A DNA stretch of 64,000 nucleotides from Candidatus Gastranaerophilales bacterium (GCA_028696075.1 JAQVHS010000007.1:26603-90602); one strand, 5' to 3'; positions 3,979 through 56,248 are shown, numbered from the stretch's first letter. Notes: generated by a model from the sequence alone, not told the origin. Numbers and translations: made by a program.

Positions 3979-4051
3979 GCCCCCATCGTCTAGAGGCCTA
4001 GGACATCACCCTTTCACGGTGGAGACGGGGATTCGAATTCCCCTGGGGGTA
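3979..4051 (+). tRNA. tRNA-Glu (anticodon UUC)
   Basis: The sequence is GCCCCCATCGTCTAGAGGCCTAGGACATCACCCTTTCACGGTGGAGACGGGGATTCGAATTCCCCTGGGGGTA. The acceptor stem is GCCCCCA/TGGGGGT, the anticodon loop is CTTTCAC, and the T-arm is GGGGATTCGAATTCCCC. No CCA is encoded. Confidence 0.9.
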
Positions 4052-4834: not shown

Positions 4835-6481
4835 TTATTCTGAAATATTTTCAAGTACCAATTCGTTTTTGTTAATACTTTTATCAATAATAAAACCAAA
4901 TGTATTACAACCGTCAAGGGTACTTTCTGCAAATATGTGTCCGTTATGGGATTGAATAATTTTACGTGTAAGATATAAACCCAATCCGGAGCTTATTTTA
5001 TTAAATACTGAGGTTTTTGATACATACTTATCAAAAATAGTGTTTAATTGTTCTTGAGGTATATGCTCTCCTTGGTTTACTATTTTAAGCGCTATTTCCT
5101 TGTTTTTATTTTCCAGAAGAATTTTAATTTTGGTTTCCTCTTTGCCATGGTTAATAGTGTTTGATAATAAGTTTGAGATAACTCTTTTTAACTGTAATTT
5201 ATCCGCCCAAATATTTGCTTCTTCGGGCTGTTTAATCATTATACCCTGTTTCCTTTCGTTAGCAAGACACGTAAGCTCGTTGTATACTTCCTCTACCAGT
5301 TCCGCTAAATTAAATTCTTCAATATTAAGCACTATGTTACCGTCTTCGTACCTGTATGAATCTAAAATAGTCATAATCATACTGAGCATGTATTTGCATG
5401 AATTGAGCAATTGTTGAATGATTTCTGTTTGTTTAGGGGTAACATTCCCAAAGCTTCCTTTGCTAAATAACTCTAAAGCTCTTATTTGGGCGAGGGTAGG
5501 ATTTTTCAAATCATGAGTTAATGTTGCAACAAAAGTATTCTTTTGTTCTTCTATTTTTTTCTCATCGTCTATATTTTTTAGGAATACCGCAATTTTATCA
5601 ACGTCTCCGTCTTGATTAAAAATCGGTATTTTAACAATCTGATACCATACTTTTATATCTTTTGAAATTGGCAGCTGCTTTGTAAGTATTAATCCTTTTT
5701 TAGTTTCTATAACTTCTCTGTCTTCCCTCAATATTGCATCCATATCCTGCAGTGAATAAAACGCTGCAGGGAAATTATCCGGATCAATAACATTGCAGCC
5801 CATTGTTTCCTTAAAGTTCTGATTAACGCATATATAATTACCTTGCAAATCTTTGAGAATAGCAATAATAGGCAGGTTATCCAGAATACTTTCTAACTCT
5901 TTTTGTTTTGTTTCAAGCTCCAGACGAAAAGTTTCCTGCCGTGAAATATTTCTGATTACACTGATAATTCCGGTAACTTTTTTATTTTTTATAATGGGAG
6001 CTGACACTACATCATGTGTAACACCTAAGTCTGATTTGAATTTATACCTTACTGTTTCTGATTTTTTTATTACCCTTTTGTCATATTTACGTATAAGAAG
6101 CGCAAGATTTTTAGAAAAAAGCTCAAAATCATTTTTACCGACTAATTTTTTGTTTTCTTCTTCCGTAAAACCAAGTAAATTAAGAAAAGTAGAGTTATAA
6201 AATATAATATTAAAATTTTTATCCTTATAAAGAAATATATCTGTACTGTACTTGGTAATATTATCAATAACCTGTTTTTGGTTTTCCGTCTTTATTGACA
6301 GCTTCATTAAGAGATAATCTTTTTGGATTAAAGTCAAAGTAAGGTAACCTGCCAATAATATGATAAAAACACCCTCATATATCGGCGAAAATTGTACGGA
6401 AATAAAAACAGATAAAATCACCGCTAATAATATAAGATATAGCAATATTCTTTTATATATTACTCGTTTTCTTACTTTCAT
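4835..6481 (-). CDS. Membrane-anchored PAS-domain sensor histidine kinase
   Basis: Two N-terminal TM helices are followed by two PAS-like regions. The H-box is FVATLTHDLKNPT, the N-box is LLSNTINHG, and the G2 region is SSGLGLYLTRKIIQSHNGHIFAES. Confidence 0.85.
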   Translation of the reverse strand: MKVRKRVIYKRILLYLILLAVILSVFISVQFSPIYEGVFIILLAGYLTLTLIQKDYLLMKLSIKTENQKQVIDNITKYSTDIFLYKDKNFNIIFYNSTFLNLLGFTEEENKKLVGKNDFELFSKNLALLIRKYDKRVIKKSETVRYKFKSDLGVTHDVVSAPIIKNKKVTGIISVIRNISRQETFRLELETKQKELESILDNLPIIAILKDLQGNYICVNQNFKETMGCNVIDPDNFPAAFYSLQDMDAILREDREVIETKKGLILTKQLPISKDIKVWYQIVKIPIFNQDGDVDKIAVFLKNIDDEKKIEEQKNTFVATLTHDLKNPTLAQIRALELFSKGSFGNVTPKQTEIIQQLLNSCKYMLSMIMTILDSYRYEDGNIVLNIEEFNLAELVEEVYNELTCLANERKQGIMIKQPEEANIWADKLQLKRVISNLLSNTINHGKEETKIKILLENKNKEIALKIVNQGEHIPQEQLNTIFDKYVSKTSVFNKISSGLGLYLTRKIIQSHNGHIFAESTLDGCNTFGFIIDKSINKNELVLENISE

Positions 6482-9944: not shown

Positions 9945-11866
9945 TCCACTTTATAAGTCTTTCTCATTTTATATTCGCTCCTTTTACCTTCATTCCACTG
10001 GTTAACAGGTCTTATGTAGCCCACAACTCTTGAGAATACTTCACAATCATTGCCGCATTTAGGGCATTTAAAGTGTTCACCCGCAAGATACCCGTGTTCA
10101 TGGCAGCTGCTGAAAGTCGGTGAGAAGGTAAAATATGGCAGCGCATAATTTTCACAAACTTTTTTAACAAGATTCTTCATTACGTTCAAGTCGTAAATTC
10201 TTTCTCCGCCAAAGATGTGAACTACAGTACCGCCTGTATATTTAGTTTGCAGCTCATCTTGTAAATCAAGTACTTCAAATATGTCATCAGAATAATTGAT
10301 AGGCAGGTGAGTAGAGTTTGTATAGAACGGTTTTGCACTGAAGTTTTCGTATTCAAGGTCGTTTGCACATTGAATTTTAGAGAAGAACTGCTTATCAAGT
10401 TTTGCAAGCCTGTATGAAGTGCCTTCCGCAGGAGTTGCTTCCAAATTATAGTTGTTATGGGTTTCTTTTTGGAATTGTTTAATTTTGTTTCTCATAAAAT
10501 CCATAACTTTAAGAGCGAATTTCCTACCTTCGTTTGTCCCGATATCTTTGTTTAAGAAGTTAGTACAAGCTTCATTCATACCTACAAGCCCGATTGTAGA
10601 GAAGTGGTTTTTCCAAAATACTCCATAGCGTGCTTTTATGTCCTTTAAGTAGAATTTTGTGTATGGATAAAGATCTTTTTCTGTATATTCTTCAAGAATT
10701 TTTCTTTTGATTTCAAGACTTTCTTTTGCTATCTCCATTCTTTCACTTAAGAGTGCAAAGAACTCTCTTTCACTTTTTGCAAGATGCCCGATTCTCGGCA
10801 TATTGATTGTAACAACGCCGATTGAACCTGTCAGAGGGTTGGAACCAAACAATCCGCCGCCCCTGTATTCAAGTTCTCTGTTGTCAATTCTCAATCTGCA
10901 GCACATAGAACGTGCATCTTCCGGGCTCATATCAGAATTAATGAAGTTTGAGAAGTATGGTATGCCGTATTTTGCAGACATTTCCCATAGTCCGTCAAGC
11001 TGCGGATTCTCCCAATCGAAATCTTTTGTAATATTGTAGGTAGGGATGGGAAAAGTAAATACCTGACCTGAATTATCGCCTTTCATCATTATTTCAAAAT
11101 ATGCTTTGTTTATAATATTCATTTCGTTCTGAAATTCGCTGTAAGTTTCTTCTTTAATTTCATCGCCGATAATTACAGCCTGATTTGCATAATAGCTTGG
11201 AACTTTTAAATCCATTGTTATATTCGTAAACGGGGTTTGGAAGCCTGTCCTTGTAGGTACGTTCAAGTTGAAAACAAACTCTTGCATAGCTTGTTTTACC
11301 TGCTCGTAATCCAGTCCGTCGTATTTAATGTACGGAGCCAAAAGCGTATCAAAGTTAGAGAAGGCTTGCGCGCCCGCAGACTCACCCTGCATTGTGTACA
11401 GGAAGTTCACAATTTGACCTAAAGCGGTTCTGAAATGCTTTGGCGGAGCGCATTTAACCTTACCGTCCACTCCGGTGAAACCTTCCGATAACAGGTCTTT
11501 TAAATCCCAGCCCACACAATAAACGCTTATCATGTTTAAATCATGGATATGAAGGTCTCCGTTTTGATGGGAATTCCTGATTGCCGGAGTGTAAATCTTA
11601 TTAAGCCAGTAATTTTTACTTATGTTAGAAGAAATGTAGTTATTCAATCCTTGTATTGAATAGGTCATATTAGAGTTTTCGTTTACCTGCCAGTCAAGCC
11701 TTTGCAGATACTCGTCAACCATTTTTACATTAGCGACGCTTACAATGTTATTCAGGTTATAAACATTGTTTTCGTGCGCAGTTTCTATTTTTGAGTGATA
11801 GGGGTTTGTAAGAGGCAAGCCAGCCTTCACTCTTTCCTGCTCATTTGTTTTTACAGTTCTGTTCAT
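9935..11866 (-). CDS. nrdD: Anaerobic (class III) ribonucleoside-triphosphate reductase
   Basis: The 643-aa ORF carries CCRLRIDNRELEYRGGGLFG, a C-terminal Zn ribbon (CPKCGNDC) and the glycyl-radical motif SRVVGYIRPV. A GGAGA SD lies upstream. Confidence 0.95.
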   Translation of the reverse strand: MNRTVKTNEQERVKAGLPLTNPYHSKIETAHENNVYNLNNIVSVANVKMVDEYLQRLDWQVNENSNMTYSIQGLNNYISSNISKNYWLNKIYTPAIRNSHQNGDLHIHDLNMISVYCVGWDLKDLLSEGFTGVDGKVKCAPPKHFRTALGQIVNFLYTMQGESAGAQAFSNFDTLLAPYIKYDGLDYEQVKQAMQEFVFNLNVPTRTGFQTPFTNITMDLKVPSYYANQAVIIGDEIKEETYSEFQNEMNIINKAYFEIMMKGDNSGQVFTFPIPTYNITKDFDWENPQLDGLWEMSAKYGIPYFSNFINSDMSPEDARSMCCRLRIDNRELEYRGGGLFGSNPLTGSIGVVTINMPRIGHLAKSEREFFALLSERMEIAKESLEIKRKILEEYTEKDLYPYTKFYLKDIKARYGVFWKNHFSTIGLVGMNEACTNFLNKDIGTNEGRKFALKVMDFMRNKIKQFQKETHNNYNLEATPAEGTSYRLAKLDKQFFSKIQCANDLEYENFSAKPFYTNSTHLPINYSDDIFEVLDLQDELQTKYTGGTVVHIFGGERIYDLNVMKNLVKKVCENYALPYFTFSPTFSSCHEHGYLAGEHFKCPKCGNDCEVFSRVVGYIRPVNQWNEGKRSEYKMRKTYKVECK

Positions 11867-11965
11867 AATGAATCTCCTTCTAAAATTCCGTGATTTTACA
11901 TGTGAAAATAATGTTTGACGTTAATCAAACTTGCAGGAAAATCATTTTTGAAAAATTTTATACAC

Positions 11966-11990
11966 AAAAAAACAACACTGACAGGTGTTG
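11966..11990 (-). terminator. Leader terminator/attenuator about 100 nt upstream of nrdD
   Basis: On the minus strand CAACAC-ctgtca-GTGTTG (6-bp stem) is followed by a T7 run. It lies inside the 5' leader rather than after a gene. Confidence 0.5.
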
Positions 11991-12120
11991 ATTTCTTTAT
12001 TGCAGCGATAAACTTCCCATAGCTAATCTCCTGTCTCGAGGTAGTTACGAAATAAGCATTCCGACTATAACGGCTGCGGACCAGTGAGGGGATTGCATGT
12101 CGGGCTTTAACCAAGCCCAC
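11991..12120 (-). promoter_or_regulatory. Candidate riboswitch aptamer in the nrdD leader (weak cobalamin-riboswitch resemblance)
   Basis: The minus strand contains GCAATCCCCTCACTGGTCCGCAGCCGTTATAG. For comparison, the E. coli btuB leader as I recall it reads GCGAATCTGGAGCTGACGCGCAGCGGTAAGG. GGGAAG and a B12-box-like AAATCAACACCTGTC abut the terminator. The canonical AGGGAA element is absent and the element order is imperfect. Confidence 0.3.
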
Positions 12121-12205
12121 GTCGACTTCAATTAAGCCTACGCTAAGCTCCGACTAAGCCTGCGTCAAACTTTAACTAAGTCTGCGCCAAGCTTCGACTA
12201 AGCCC
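12097..12205 (-). repeat. Five tandem ~22-nt mini-hairpin units in the nrdD leader
   Basis: The minus strand reads gggcttagtcgaagcttggcgc / agacttagttaaagtttgacgc / aggcttagtcggagcttagcgt / aggcttaattgaagtcgacgt / gggcttggttaaagcccgacat. Each unit is an RGCTT stem, a pentaloop, an AAGYY stem and a TGRCGY-like linker. Confidence 0.75.
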
Positions 12206-12237
12206 AGCTCACCCTGCTTTCCTTAAATCGTTTTCCA

Positions 12238-12266
12238 ATGCTATCTCAATTTTTTTTATTTGTCAA
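12238..12266 (-). promoter_or_regulatory. Candidate sigma70-type promoter of the nrdDG leader
   Basis: On the minus strand TTGACA lies at 12266-12261, followed by a 17-nt spacer and TAGCAT at 12243-12238. This implies a leader of about 360 nt. Confidence 0.35.
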
Positions 12267-12453: not shown

Positions 12454-15400
12454 TCAGCTGCTTGGGATTGGACTGTTGGGCAAAGGCAATTTTTTATCCT
12501 CTTCAACTTCTTCATTTGCATAATACCTGTGGTCTTGCAGACTTTCAAGAGATTTCATAACGCCCAGTCTGCCGGCTTCTTTTTCTAACTTCGCAAAATA
12601 TGATGCGAGCAGATATGACATAAAGGTACAGCATAATCCCCAAGAAATTCCTGCTGCTGCTAACATAGCTTTTAAGGTGGGCGTCATAAAAGAGCTTGCT
12701 AATTTTTCAGGATTTTCTTTCAATAATATATAAGTTTTGACAGGGTCTGCTTGAATCTTATTAAATATTTTTGCGAATTCAGCCTTACCTTCACCTTTAG
12801 GGAAATTATTTATAACTTTTTCAAGCCTTTCAATAATACTTAATGCCGACTTTTTATTAAACTTGCCCAGTTCCAGCTTAGGCAGGTATCTTTGGACTAA
12901 AGCTTGAATTTCTTCAGAATTTAATTTTGCAAATTCTGCATCGCTCATTTTATTCACAGATGATTTGAGTTTGTTGAATATAGCCTGCGAAGAAAGCTCT
13001 ATATCAGGAATTATCTTGTGTGCTTTTCTTACAAATTCTGCCAGCAGTTGTTTAGGTTCGTCTATTTGTTTCAGCTGAATTGTGGAAAGCATTTCATGTA
13101 TAAAATGTTTGGCTGTTGCAGATAAGCTCTGTACATCATTTGATTGAATTTTGCCTATGGCTTCTCTTGCTGTTCTGATATAGCCGGTCACCGCCTCGTC
13201 CTGCCAGCCCGTTTTTGCTAAAAGTGATTCTATAGAGCCCACGAGTTTCAAGGCTTGTTCTTTATTAATATTTTCAAGATTTACCGATGAGAGTGTTTTT
13301 TCGACTTTTGCTTCAATAAGTCCTTTTAATTTATTAAACCCTGCTTCATCAAGGTTATCTACATATTTAACCAAGTCTGCCAGTTTTGATTTTGGATTTA
13401 AACCGTATAATTTGCTGATACTGTTTTTGCCTTGTTCCGCCAATTTTTTAAGCGCACCGACATTGATTTGTATATCGGGAACTTTCTCAAGCGGCAAAGC
13501 GTCTAATTTGTCAAGTATACGGAGCATTTGTTCCTGTGATAATCTGGTGGTGGCAGGGAAAAATCTTTTAATATCAGCGGGAAGCAGTTTTATTATATCA
13601 TCCAGATCCATAAGTCTTTGCAATTTAAAGAACTCATAATGCCCGGAGTCTTCTATAATTTGTTTTAATACGGGTATTTTATTTTTCAAATCGGATGCTG
13701 ATATTTTACCGCTTGTCTGTATTGCTCTAAGATCTAAAGCAGCGGTTATTTTTTGTAATATTTCAGGAACTGTTTGACGCTCTATATTTGCAGTTATATT
13801 ATTTCCGACTTCTCTTAAGTGGCGTTTGAAAAGTTTGCTTTTCATCAGTTTACTTGAAGATGCCATCATATCAAAAGCTTTATCAGCAACTTTGCCGACA
13901 CTCAACTTTCCTTTTGCAACAAGAATTCCGATAACTGCCAGCGGCGATAAAAATGCAGCGTAGCCTCCAATATAAATCAAAGGTTGAATCATCTGATTGG
14001 CTGCTTCCATTGTTTCTGAGTATTTTTGGGAGTTTTCATCAACTTTTTCAAATGTATTAAATACTTTCCTTTGTAAATTTCTTGCATTTTTCAGCTGTTT
14101 TTCGCTTATTTCTTGTTTCATGAGTTCTTTTTTGAGTTCTTTTTCCTCTTTTAGTCCTGTTTTTTTATATTCTTGATATCGGAAATAATGTTTAACGGAA
14201 CGAGGCAAGAAGGAGATATGCTCAATAAAAGAATTAAACGCAGATTGTTTAGGCGCTTTTATATTTTTGACGGATTCAATCTCTTTTTCATCATAACTCA
14301 GATATTCCTGCGGATTATTCTTAAACTCTTCTCTTGCAACGAATCTGCCTGCTCTTGCTGCTGCTTTTTGCAGTTTCAACGCTGTCATAATACCTATAAA
14401 CATGCTTATCACAGTGGTTGGAACGGCTAAAATAGCAAATCTGCCGGCAGGTGTTATGGAAAGTCTGCTCAAGACACTTTTTAACTTTGCCATCTTACTC
14501 CCCGTGCGAAGTTTTTCCCGTATGTTATTATTAAGTTTGCTGCTGAGATTTTTTAAAGCTGCTTTATATGCATCCGGGTCTTGTTTTTGCTTCATTGCAT
14601 AGAATGTTACAAAATCTTTTACAATTTCATCGCTGCCTGTTGAAGATTTTATTAATTTTTTACTAACTGCTTTTGCGATACCCAGTTTACTTACAATAAA
14701 TGATGATATAGCGCCTAAAACAGGACCGCCTAAAAGTGAGCTTGAGAGAATAACTTCTGCTGATGTTTCCATGTTTTCGGAGTATTCTTCCGCTTTATTG
14801 TTTACTTTTTTAACGATTCTGTGAATCACCTGTTGGTCAGACTTTGCTTGTTTTATTTCTTGTTCGGTTAATTCACGAGTTACGATTTTGGCATCGTCCG
14901 TGTCATTCTTCTTCCATTCATTATAACTTTTGCGGTCTTTTATAAGACCTGTCATATTTTTCCAAAAGCCTTTCCTGTCATCATCACCTTTGCGTTTTTG
15001 CCAGAAACTTCTTTTTTCAGAAGGGCGATTTTTGACGGCTTCTTTTGCTTTTGTTCTCTGCTCGGGGGTATAGTTCACGGAGTATTTAGGGTCTTCAATT
15101 TCTTTTCGTGCCTGATAACGAGCTATTCTTGAAGCATCGATTTGCAGCTTGGTTCCATATAATGTTGAACCTACAAACGCAGCTATAGGAACGGTTACAG
15201 CAAGGGTAACGGCTATAGGTCTCCATATTTTTAAAGGTTTAGAGATTTTTGCCCATTCTTTAGTATGTTTTTGCAGTGCAGCGGCATATTCTGGAGGAAT
15301 ATTAATATTCATTTTTTTTAATCTTTTAGGATTGAGGAGATCTCCTCTAGATAAATATTTTTTAGGGTTTGCTGCTTCAATGTTGCGGTATATATCAGAA

Positions 15401-15585
15401 GTATAATCTATTGAATTTGCCTTCAAAAACTCTTGCAGCTTTTTATTCAGCCTTCTTTCATTTTTATAGGTTATAAATCCTGCGCCGCCCAAGCCGACCG
15501 CTAAACCCGCAACATTAGCCAAAGCTTGTGCAGGCTGAGTAGCGGCTTCCATATCTTCTGATATATCTTCTGAGTGCTGATCCAT
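12454..15585 (-). CDS. Large hypothetical six-TM membrane protein with an internally repeated module
   Basis: The 1043-aa ORF has about six hydrophobic helices. A post-TM motif occurs three times (TKLQIDASRIARYQARKE; LKLQKAAARAGRFVAREE; AKLEKEAGRLGVMKSLES). A pre-TM motif occurs twice (AEEYSENMETSAEVI; SQKYSETMEAANQMI). A helical soluble insert of about 400 aa is present. I recognise no family. Confidence 0.75.
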   Translation of the reverse strand: MDQHSEDISEDMEAATQPAQALANVAGLAVGLGGAGFITYKNERRLNKKLQEFLKANSIDYTSDIYRNIEAANPKKYLSRGDLLNPKRLKKMNINIPPEYAAALQKHTKEWAKISKPLKIWRPIAVTLAVTVPIAAFVGSTLYGTKLQIDASRIARYQARKEIEDPKYSVNYTPEQRTKAKEAVKNRPSEKRSFWQKRKGDDDRKGFWKNMTGLIKDRKSYNEWKKNDTDDAKIVTRELTEQEIKQAKSDQQVIHRIVKKVNNKAEEYSENMETSAEVILSSSLLGGPVLGAISSFIVSKLGIAKAVSKKLIKSSTGSDEIVKDFVTFYAMKQKQDPDAYKAALKNLSSKLNNNIREKLRTGSKMAKLKSVLSRLSITPAGRFAILAVPTTVISMFIGIMTALKLQKAAARAGRFVAREEFKNNPQEYLSYDEKEIESVKNIKAPKQSAFNSFIEHISFLPRSVKHYFRYQEYKKTGLKEEKELKKELMKQEISEKQLKNARNLQRKVFNTFEKVDENSQKYSETMEAANQMIQPLIYIGGYAAFLSPLAVIGILVAKGKLSVGKVADKAFDMMASSSKLMKSKLFKRHLREVGNNITANIERQTVPEILQKITAALDLRAIQTSGKISASDLKNKIPVLKQIIEDSGHYEFFKLQRLMDLDDIIKLLPADIKRFFPATTRLSQEQMLRILDKLDALPLEKVPDIQINVGALKKLAEQGKNSISKLYGLNPKSKLADLVKYVDNLDEAGFNKLKGLIEAKVEKTLSSVNLENINKEQALKLVGSIESLLAKTGWQDEAVTGYIRTAREAIGKIQSNDVQSLSATAKHFIHEMLSTIQLKQIDEPKQLLAEFVRKAHKIIPDIELSSQAIFNKLKSSVNKMSDAEFAKLNSEEIQALVQRYLPKLELGKFNKKSALSIIERLEKVINNFPKGEGKAEFAKIFNKIQADPVKTYILLKENPEKLASSFMTPTLKAMLAAAGISWGLCCTFMSYLLASYFAKLEKEAGRLGVMKSLESLQDHRYYANEEVEEDKKLPLPNSPIPSS

Positions 15586-44702: not shown

Positions 44703-45836
44703 CTAATTTTCTTCAAAAGTTGCGCGGGCTTCAGATTCGGGAATATACTTTCCCGCTTTAGCCTTTTCAACATCTTTAAAGCTTAATCCGATTCTGTGTT
44801 CTTGCGGAGTGAAACGTTTGATTAGCACTTCAATTTCATCTCCGACATTTAAGACGTTGTAAGGGTTAATTTGTCCTTCGCCCATTTCAGCGGCGGGAAG
44901 CAATGCTTCCACTCCGGGGAAAATATTGATAAACGCACCGAAAGAGGTGATTTTATTAACTTGCCCGGGAACAACCTGACCTTCCTTAAATTGACCTTCG
45001 ATTTTTGTCCAGGGATTTTCGCCCATTCTTTTTAAAGAAAGGCTTATTCTGTTTAATTCATTATCAATTTTTAGGATGATAACTTTAATAGATTGACCCA
45101 ATTGAAGGACATCCGAAGGATGTTTAATTCTCTGCCATGAAATTTCAGAGATGGGAAGTAATCCGTCAACACCATTGATGTCAATAAAAGCACCGAAGTC
45201 TGCTATTCTGACAACTTGTCCTTCAACTTCCTGCTCAACTTCAAGCTGGTTGATAACATCTTCGACGATTTGTTCTCTTTGTTCAGCCAGCGCCAGTCTT
45301 TGGCTTAATATAAGTTTGTTCTTCTTGGGATCAGCTTCAATTACTTTAACATCGATAGTTTTACCGATAAGACCTTCAAACGGTGTACCTGTTCTTAACT
45401 GGCTTGAGGGAACAAACCCTCTTAAGTCCATAACATCTACTACAACACCGCCTTTAACCAATGAAGAAATCTCAGCCGTGATAGTTTCGTTGCTTTGTCT
45501 GATTTCATCAAGACGCGTCCAGTTTTGAGCCAATGAAACTCTTTTTAATGAAAGGGTTATAATCCCTTCTTCATTTTCCTCTTTTAGGATTAAAAAATCT
45601 CTTTCATCTCCCACTTGAAGTTTATTTTCACCTTCAAAGTCGTTTTTTGAAACTTCTCTAAACGGTAAAAGCGCTTCTGATTTAGCGCCGATATCGACTA
45701 AAATTTCCGCTTTATCAAATTTAACTATTGTTCCTTTAACAACATCGGCTACTTTAAATGAATAGCTTGGTGAGTTCAAAAATAATTTTTCAAATTCGCT
45801 CATTTGCGCCTCATTTTTTTCCAGCATTTTTGTCAT
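44703..45836 (-). CDS. rpsA: 30S ribosomal protein S1 (four S1 domains)
   Basis: S1 OB-fold signatures repeat: GTIVKFDKAEILVDIG, VKGGVVVDV, GQVVRIADFGAFIDI and GQVNKITSFGAFINI. Confidence 0.9.
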   Translation of the reverse strand: MTKMLEKNEAQMSEFEKLFLNSPSYSFKVADVVKGTIVKFDKAEILVDIGAKSEALLPFREVSKNDFEGENKLQVGDERDFLILKEENEEGIITLSLKRVSLAQNWTRLDEIRQSNETITAEISSLVKGGVVVDVMDLRGFVPSSQLRTGTPFEGLIGKTIDVKVIEADPKKNKLILSQRLALAEQREQIVEDVINQLEVEQEVEGQVVRIADFGAFIDINGVDGLLPISEISWQRIKHPSDVLQLGQSIKVIILKIDNELNRISLSLKRMGENPWTKIEGQFKEGQVVPGQVNKITSFGAFINIFPGVEALLPAAEMGEGQINPYNVLNVGDEIEVLIKRFTPQEHRIGLSFKDVEKAKAGKYIPESEARATFEEN

Positions 45837-55985: not shown

Positions 55986-56248
55986 AAAGGTATTCTGTCA
56001 AAAAAGCATTGTAACCGACGTAAAGCAATAGCACTAAAAAGCCTTACAATGAATATCGGTTTTGATACCTGCAATGTCTCGCAGGTGGGTGCCGCCCCAA
56101 GTAAATCGCCGTTTCCTGCTGCGTGGCAGGTCTACTTTGTTACTTTTAAGATCAAACTCCCTAATAAAAAAGATGTAGGATCAAAACAAAATACCCACTG
56201 TAAGGTAATAGTATTATTGCATATCTTTTGAAATTTTTCCACAATACT

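Follow-up and report, generated by a model that had tools for sequence, protein, structure and literature searches.

A tandem-repeat expansion in the L4 T-loop of a predicted class-II cobalamin riboswitch preceding nrdDG in a Candidatus Gastranaerophilales bacterium

Studies of the class-II cobalamin riboswitches have established that the loop closing their P4 helix, L4, is a conserved T-loop that docks with loop L6 and directs the global fold of the RNA (PMC6158498; PMC7367189). Nucleotide 3 of a T-loop is by definition unstacked and free, and the docking of L4 with L6 uses other positions (PMC6158498). The presence of a cobalamin (B12) riboswitch upstream of nrdD is itself a documented arrangement (PMC8620254). 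The leader considered here belongs to the nrdDG genes on the minus strand of a 64,000-nucleotide stretch of DNA from Candidatus Gastranaerophilales bacterium (GCA_028696075.1 JAQVHS010000007.1:26603-90602), referred to below as the window. The Gastranaerophilales are non-photosynthetic relatives of the cyanobacteria. A first-pass annotation of the window described five tandem mini-hairpin units of about 22 nucleotides (nt) in this leader, placed them between a promoter and a riboswitch-like core, and took the organization of the leader to be undescribed, which the riboswitches already known before nrdD contradict. Comparison with related leaders indicates that the array is not upstream of a riboswitch but inside the aptamer of one, in the L4 T-loop of a predicted class-II cobalamin riboswitch (AdoCbl-II, RF01689). 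What is new here is the expansion of the L4 T-loop by tandem repeats; the cobalamin riboswitch itself is of a known kind. The reading that we favour, and to which we would give a probability of about 70%, is that the array is a tolerated, lineage-specific expansion segment in a riboswitch that would repress nrdDG when B12 is available.

The position of the array follows from the alignment of the window with its relatives. A search with nhmmer of the window leader against nrdD loci found conservation only in the ~90 nt directly 3' of the array (12097-12007), and the homologous stretch of orthologous leaders was matched by RF01689 at 47.5 bits in locus L014, 41.2 in L028, 38.1 in L005 and 37.6 in L013. 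Set side by side, loci L001 and L078 read AAGGAAAGCAGGG-UGAAAUU-CCCUCACUGGUCCGCAG and the window reads AAGGAAAGCAGGG-UGA-(114 nt)-AAUC-CCCUCACUGGUCCGCAG, which places the array within L4, the hairpin loop of P4. The flanks of the insert equal those of the relatives base for base (AAGGAAAGCAGGGTGA ... AATCCCCTCACTGGTCCGCAGCCGTTATAGTCGGAATGCTTA). The 5' part of the aptamer (12209-12231; this and all other leader features lie on the minus strand) is identical in sequence to that of L001, L078 and L002 (AAGGAAAGCAGGGTG) and consists of the P1/P3 5' strand ACGAUUUAAG (12231-12222), the junction J3/4 GAAAGC (12221-12216), the P4 5' strand AGGG (12215-12212) and nt 1-3 of the T-loop, UGA (12211-12209). 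The insert occupies 12208-12095 and is made up of GCU, the five units (12205-12097) and GC, its bounds being set against the plain 7-nt L4 of 83 relatives. The 3' part of the aptamer (12047-12094), supported by its nhmmer conservation against at least 20 relatives, resumes with nt 4-7 of L4, AAUC (12094-12091), followed by the P4 3' strand CCCU (12090-12087), the P5/L5 hairpin CUG-GUCCG-CAG (12084-12074), the P6/L6 hairpin CCG-UUAUAGU-CGG (12073-12061), J6/3 AAUG (12060-12057) and the P3/P1 3' strand CUUAUUUCGU (12056-12047).

The rest of the aptamer is intact. An alignment of 61 distinct normal aptamers of the clade had 91.3% of cells paired in P1/P3, P4, P5 and P6, with a covariation of 0.323 against 0.112 that was reached by none of 500 shuffles, while slid controls remained below 0.08. 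When 12208-12095 was removed the window kept all 33 invariant and 14 of the 15 near-invariant columns, including the GGAAA junction, the P5/L5 core CUGGNCCGCAG and the P6 and J6/3 core CCGU..AGUCGGAAUGC. Its P1/P3 helix (ACGAUUUAAG/CUUAUUUCGU) is a compensated variant of the family helix. Over all the helices 17 of the 21 pairs of the window are standard, and the other four are a gap in the alignment, a terminal pair and two U-U positions at which family members are often unpaired. The spliced window scored 76.0 bits against the family profile, in which members range from 61.8 to 82.4 bits with a median of 76.8, whereas the unspliced sequence was found in two pieces of 51.7 and 8.0 bits. A covariance model built for the clade, R1, matched the 3' two-thirds of the aptamer (12044-12130) at 39.8 bits (E 5.5e-10) and failed to bridge the 114 nt, the 5' half of the model being misplaced on unit 5 and the true 5' half being matched separately at 12193-12234 with 6.9 bits. 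A further R1 match at 44976-45047 (minus strand, 21.5 bits), which lies inside an open reading frame (ORF; 44703-45836) and is without P5 and P6, was treated as spurious.

The variability of L4 was surveyed by scanning metagenomes with a core motif that left L4 free (CTGGNCCGCAGCCGTNNNAGTCGGAAT), which gave 63 loci; with the genome loci and the window these made 87 aptamers holding the core motif. A plain 7-nt L4 was present in 83 of the 87, with the consensus UGAAAAU, in which G2 and A5 are invariant and nt 3 (column 29) is variable, and four carried an insert. Once the inserts are removed all four leave seven loop nucleotides split 3 / 4 in the pattern U-G-R / R-A-N-N: UGA/AAUC in the window (insert of 114 nt), UGG/GAUU in L002 (28 nt, GGCGUA...UACGCC), UGG/GAGU in L134 (23 nt) and UGA/AAGU in L141 (14 nt). 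All seven L4 nucleotides are thus present in the window, the invariant G2 and A5 among them, although split by an insert four times longer than any other seen. The inserts of L002, L134 and L141 are single self-complementary hairpins, unrelated in sequence, which R1 spans at 74-84 bits, placing each within L4. Since these sequences are unrelated, the inserts fall in different lineages and L141 precedes a different gene, the insertion events are taken to be independent, which points to the step between nt 3 and 4 of L4 as a recurrent and probably permissive site. An insert following T-loop nt 3 would stand at an exposed apex, and the array may accordingly project as a side arm with U1, G2, A4 and A5 of the T-loop left free for docking with L6. 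To our knowledge no riboswitch has been described in which a helix interrupts the T-loop between positions 3 and 4. As an observation in its own right, L6 inserts of 45-100 nt between CCGU and AGUCGG accompany a normal L4 in L001 (2806-2877), L078 (2806-2877), L022 and L027; both docking loops, L4 and L6, are insertion-prone in this clade.

Read in the nrdD sense the array divides, exactly as first quoted, into five head-to-tail units without gaps, of which units 1 (12205-12184), 2 (12183-12162), 3 (12161-12140) and 5 (12118-12097) are 22 nt long and unit 4 (12139-12119) is 21 nt long. Tandem Repeats Finder reported 12126-12204 with a period of 22, 3.6 copies and 71% matches, and a repeat search found three 36-nt copies at 22-nt spacing as well as a match between units 1 and 5, 87 nt apart. 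The unit consensus, with up to 3 mismatches, was matched three times in the 64 kb, in the array only, where 0.02 matches were expected and none of 100 shuffles reached three. The first-pass annotation had proposed looking for other copies of the unit and held that a lack of conserved hairpins in orthologous nrdD leaders would count against its proposal; no copy was found outside the array in the window, none of the 80 nrdD loci fetched, orthologous or related, had the motif, and two adjacent units sought in metagenome contigs gave 0 matches. The tract is GC-richer than its flanks (0.47-0.50 vs 0.26-0.36), as had been remarked, but this richness runs through the whole aptamer and is not a property of the array alone.

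Between units the identity is 12-18 of 22 positions (55-82%), a divergence of 18-45%. The greatest similarity is that of unit 1 to unit 3, followed by that of unit 2 to unit 4, an order that hints at an older duplication step of 44 nt. The array most likely originated from a small hairpin, inserted first and then duplicated repeatedly by slippage in steps of 22 nt and possibly also of 44 nt. The sole perfect hairpin among the units is that of unit 5, GGGCUU-GGUUA-AAGCCC, and this unit may resemble the founder. Unit 3 resembles the aptamer's own UAGUCGGA(AU)GCUUA, but the similarity is weak, being equalled by 57 of 2000 shuffles (p ~0.03), and a derivation of the unit from the 3' segment of the aptamer itself (UAGUCGGA--GCUUA) is not relied on here. 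Separately, a segment of unit 2, UAAAGUUUGACG (12163-12174), is complementary at 11 of 12 positions to 11909-11920, just upstream of the Shine-Dalgarno sequence (SD) of nrdD; the latter segment also falls within a local hairpin, GUUUGA-UUAA-CGUCAAAC, and by our own estimate ~0.3 such complementary pairs are expected by chance in the region.

A period of 22 bp, two helical turns, together with internal palindromes (AAGCTT, GCGC) is typical of repeated operators, and the array would lie at +25 to +135 from the promoter, so that direct repeats acting at the level of DNA, bound by a factor such as NrdR, were considered along with an artefact of assembly. A search of the 64 kb for the NrdR box (acaCwAtATaTwGtgt, tandem 16-bp, up to 3 mismatches) found it only at 6004-6019, which is the chance level, and not near nrdD. 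The dependence of the pairing on G.U and on strand points to RNA, as does an insertion point set by RNA structure, and units that differ at 4-10 of 22 positions are not the product of assembly collapse or expansion. Operators and artefact together are given the least credence of all the explanations weighed here.

Folding of the array is strand-specific. The folding energy is -49.1 kcal/mol for the sense RNA (z -3.2) and -30.5 kcal/mol for the antisense (z -1.9), and 6-10 G.U pairs occur in the best folds of the sense strand, all of which agrees with the earlier suggestion of an RNA-level element sense to nrdD. The 114-nt insert has a minimum free energy (MFE) of -47.7 kcal/mol (z -4.1 vs shuffles). 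In that structure unit 2 is the centre of a long hairpin that takes in units 1-3, and hairpins are also formed by units 4 and 5, while an alternative rod centred on unit 3 reaches -45.8 kcal/mol; the register-shifted alternative folds that had been proposed are real in the fold ensemble. Folded singly, units 2-5 give a 5-6-bp stem and a pentaloop, whereas unit 1 prefers a different small fold, with energies of -2 to -10.5 kcal/mol each (the pentaloops of units 1-5 read AGUCG, AGUUA, AGUCG, AAUUG and GGUUA). The description of one mini-hairpin per unit therefore holds for units 2-5 taken singly, but not for unit 1 and not for the array as a whole, in which five independent hairpins amount to -26.9 kcal/mol, or to -34.7 kcal/mol with extra pairs, 13-21 kcal/mol above the MFE and with an equilibrium probability of ~5e-11. 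Each unit has a 3' arm complementary to the 5' arms of all the others, and this cross-complementarity, together with linkers that hold RCGY palindromes, makes inter-unit pairing win. The units would thus pair mutually into long, imperfect and register-degenerate helices with both ends rejoining. Most likely the ends of the insert meet and the arm closes upon itself, since the other three L4 inserts are single hairpins with meeting ends. When all the riboswitch helices were enforced, the whole aptamer folded just 1.2 kcal/mol above its unconstrained MFE, and therefore the insert can fold as an autonomous side domain.

These folds also bear on the suggestion of the first-pass annotation that five equivalent mini-hairpins serve as a platform for a multimeric RNA-binding protein or as a cooperative sensor. 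The regular build of the units (stem, pentaloop and linker), stems that are preserved through G-C, A-U and G-U changes between units and a sense strand that is specifically structured are all what such a platform would lead one to expect. However, the five-hairpin state is the less stable one by the 13-21 kcal/mol given above, the unit is absent from orthologous leaders and from everything else searched, and the array sits in a riboswitch loop where relatives carry unrelated hairpins. There is also no GGA in the loops, and neither NAG triplets spaced by 5 nt nor hexaloops are present. We regard a protein platform or cooperative sensor as very improbable.

A number of observations weigh against the interpretation of the array as a tolerated expansion segment. 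L4 is a highly conserved T-loop that directs folding (PMC6158498), and an insert of 114 nt could damage it. The one near-invariant column not kept by the window is nt 7 of L4, which is C in place of the usual U. The native sequence has no match to RF01689 at the gathering score of 36.5 bits, which is an operational criterion and not a structural one, and Rfam gave no relevant match at E<=10 either over 2.5 kb or on 271 nt of the leader; the miss is attributed to the 114-nt insert in L4. The matches that were returned (snoR64, TD-1, FTX and similar) had E>1 and were set aside as noise. The fold ensemble of the insert is highly degenerate: 1035 structures fall within 3 kcal/mol. Prefix folds, which are equilibrium folds and not kinetics, show the P1 5' strand transiently paired with units 1 and 4: at nascent lengths of 84-139 nt the MFE structure pairs CGAUUUAAG with CUUAGUCG or AAGUCG of these units, genuine P1/P3 emerges only from ~200 nt, and pairing of this sort could trap the aptamer. 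Finally, a second genome with the array was not found among the nrdD loci and metagenome contigs searched. The NrdD of the window is a singleton among 5.8 billion proteins, with nothing between 79% and 100% identity, and the sole other contig with exact NrdD and NrdG, a short one from Logan, reaches no further than 84 nt upstream of nrdD. In the genome collection the NrdD homologues nearest to that of the window come from Gastranaerophilales, at 58-80% identity, and because all other NrdD matches are at most 79% identical the lineage of the window is sparsely sampled.

Several of these points would suit a riboswitch that the insertion has disabled, in which the docking of L4 and L6 is broken, B12 is not bound and nrdDG is uncoupled from B12, so that expression would hinge on the ligand-free behaviour of the platform and terminator. 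The reported conservation of L4 and its role in the global fold (PMC6158498), the plain 7-nt loop held by 83 of the 87 family members, the atypical nt 7, the exceptional length and degenerate ensemble of the insert and the decoy pairings of the P1 5' strand all favour it. Against this, the 33 invariant positions, P13, the SD and the sequence of L5 are all intact, helices are tolerated at exactly the same site in three other lineages, and a dead aptamer should have decayed in the time that the units took to diverge by 18-45%. Because the units have diverged this far and the aptamer is undecayed, the riboswitch appears to have remained under selection after the insertion, and the insert would not be inactivating. 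A disabled riboswitch is considered unlikely. If the array is instead a tolerated expansion segment, the riboswitch would stay functional and presumably still bind B12, with the array as a passenger that has probably no function of its own and is at most mildly modulating.

The prefix folds raise the further possibility that the array is an added module tuning the riboswitch kinetically, its units, which resemble the P3/P1 3' strand, transiently capturing the P1 5' strand in the course of transcription and so delaying closure of the aptamer or guiding its folding, in which case changes in repeat number might reset the response. The pairing of CGAUUUAAG at 84-139 nt and the late emergence of P1/P3 would fit such a module, as would the match of unit 3 to UAGUCGGA(AU)GCUUA and the second match of R1, in which the covariance model aligns unit 1 as though it were the P3/P1 3' strand. 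The similarity of unit 3 is, however, that equalled by 57 of 2000 shuffles, the other three L4 inserts are without such complementarity on inspection, the prefix folds describe equilibria, and at 55-82% identity the units are too diverged for easy slippage now. Tuning of this kind is regarded as improbable. A broader version, in which the tandem arm is a functional add-on, either a co-transcriptional decoy or timer whose units mimic the P3/P1 3' strand and keep the P1 5' strand engaged until synthesis of the aptamer is complete or a docking arm for a protein or a second RNA, and the apex of L4 is a natural plug-in site for accessory domains of class-II cobalamin riboswitches, is doubtful, if a little less so than kinetic tuning taken by itself and a little more so than loss of function.

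The promoter noted in the first-pass annotation was found again, a sigma-70-like site at 12238-12266 with TTGACA (12266-12261), a 17-nt spacer and TAGCAT (12243-12238) that agrees with the consensus at 10 of 12 positions, and TTGACx-17-TAnnAT occurs at equal distance from the aptamer 5' end in L001, L078, L002, L028 and L005. Transcription would start at ~12231-12234, a few nucleotides before P1. Since the aptamer begins a few nucleotides after the promoter and the spacing is conserved, the array is placed inside the transcript. Downstream of the aptamer lies the predicted expression platform (12018-12041), a P13-like hairpin, CCU-CGAGAC-AGG, carrying the SD AGGAG (12041-12028) and followed by an ATG (12020-12018). 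The segment ACCTCGAGACAGGAGATT..ATG is conserved among relatives, in which the P13-like stem, read from the sequences, co-varies as CCU/AGG, CCA/UGG and CUU/AAG. A kissing-loop contact of L5 with L13 is suggested by analogy with env8 Cbl-IIa (PMC6158498); in the window the complementarity, judged by eye alone, is GUC/GAC.

In 52 of 72 distinct platforms of this riboswitch family the ATG directly opens the long, regulated ORF downstream. In the window it opens a leader ORF of seven codons (ATG GGA AGU UUA UCG CUG CAA UAA, MGSLSLQ; 11997-12020), begun by the SD and ATG of the riboswitch, and comparable short ORFs were found in L005 (MGNLSGSIFA), L028 and L116. The stop codon of the window ORF is separated by 6 nt from the 5' arm of an intrinsic-terminator-like hairpin, CAACAC-CUGUCA-GUGUUG (11990-11973), which with its U7 run spans 11966-11990 and had likewise been noted before; in L028 (2513-2600) and L116 the short ORF ends within the terminator 5' arm. 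A second SD, AAGGAG (11879-11874), precedes nrdD (11866-9935; Pfam NRDD, 5e-203), which begins 100 nt beyond the terminator with this SD as its own, and nrdG follows (9944-9255; Pfam Radical_SAM and Fer4_12). This arrangement suggests that a translational riboswitch has been turned into transcription attenuation by translation of a leader peptide. With no B12 the leader ORF would be translated and the ribosome would block formation of the terminator; with B12 present the SD would be sequestered and the terminator would form. The leader as a whole is proposed to switch off the class III reductase, an enzyme independent of B12, when B12 is present, a regulatory logic that is already known. The rationale for placing a B12-independent class III reductase under such an off-switch involves nrdJ. 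The SD-ATG segments at 12018-12032 and 11864-11878 (AGGAGAUUAGCUAUG / AGGAGAUUCAUUAUG, also written AGGAGATTAGCTATG and AGGAGATTCATTATG) form a direct repeat, 80% identical and 154 nt apart, which is consistent with an ancestral nrdD start having been duplicated, or displaced by a terminator-bearing segment. An ORF of 74 aa with a GTG start that runs across the leader (11896-12120) has no Pfam match, overlaps aptamer and terminator and was treated as spurious.

The wider neighbourhood can be described briefly. Directly upstream of the nrdD leader is an ORF of 1043 aa (12454-15585, minus strand) with no Pfam match and no exact copy on record. The only Rfam matches in the window at gathering score were a 6S RNA (56036-56210, minus strand, 55.4 bits) and a tRNA (3979-4051, plus strand). 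Several relatives (L030 2693-2770, L019 1155-1231 and L022 2424-2502, all minus strand) have an additional AdoCbl-II aptamer upstream of the nrdD leader and on the strand opposite to it; this aptamer presumably controls a divergent gene.

The finding leaves the accepted working of B12 riboswitches unchanged. Its most immediate consequence is for annotation, as a fully conserved B12 riboswitch has been missed by Rfam through a loop insert and an annotation of this genome would show nrdDG as unregulated; the number of riboswitches hidden in a similar way by large inserts in their loops is probably underestimated. The L4 T-loop accepts a helix between nt 3 and 4 in at least 4 independent lineages, with a length of up to 114 nt, and a site this permissive would be useful both for engineering, in the placing of tags or fluorogenic aptamers, and for understanding the tolerance of T-loops. 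In evolutionary terms the leader appears to be a case of minisatellite-like repeat expansion within a functional RNA aptamer.

Among described systems, repeated short motifs in 5' leaders or small RNAs are familiar from the GGA hairpins of CsrB and RsmZ, the (G/U)AG repeats bound by TRAP and the dual hexaloops bound by ANTAR proteins. The array of the window differs from the targets of CsrA, TRAP and ANTAR in being without GGA in its loops, without (G/U)AG every 5 nt and without paired hexaloops having A1 and G4, and it differs from arrayed protein-binding repeats in general in being confined to one genome and embedded in an aptamer loop. The closest likeness is to AdoCbl-II (RF01689; env8 Cbl-IIa type, PDB 4FRN/4FRG), with which the leader shares J3/4 GGAAA, P4 with a U-G-N-R-A T-loop, P5/L5, P6 with AGUCGG, J6/3 and a continuous P1/P3, and then a P13-like hairpin bearing the SD. 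It departs from this type in having L4 broken by 114 nt of tandem repeats, in giving no Rfam match, and in that the ATG under its control is not that of nrdD itself but starts an ORF of 7 codons with a terminator behind it. Peripheral extensions of cobalamin riboswitches, such as the P6 extension of Cbl-I and the P2 arm, are likewise helices of variable length around a conserved four-way-junction core, but the known ones are at P2 and P6, whereas that of the window is in the L4 T-loop and is made of tandem repeats. T-loops can also form in non-hairpin contexts, as in the internal loops of RNase P and T-box stem I, and the expansion segments of rRNA and the variable arm of tRNA are lineage-specific helices tolerated at solvent-exposed points of conserved folds.

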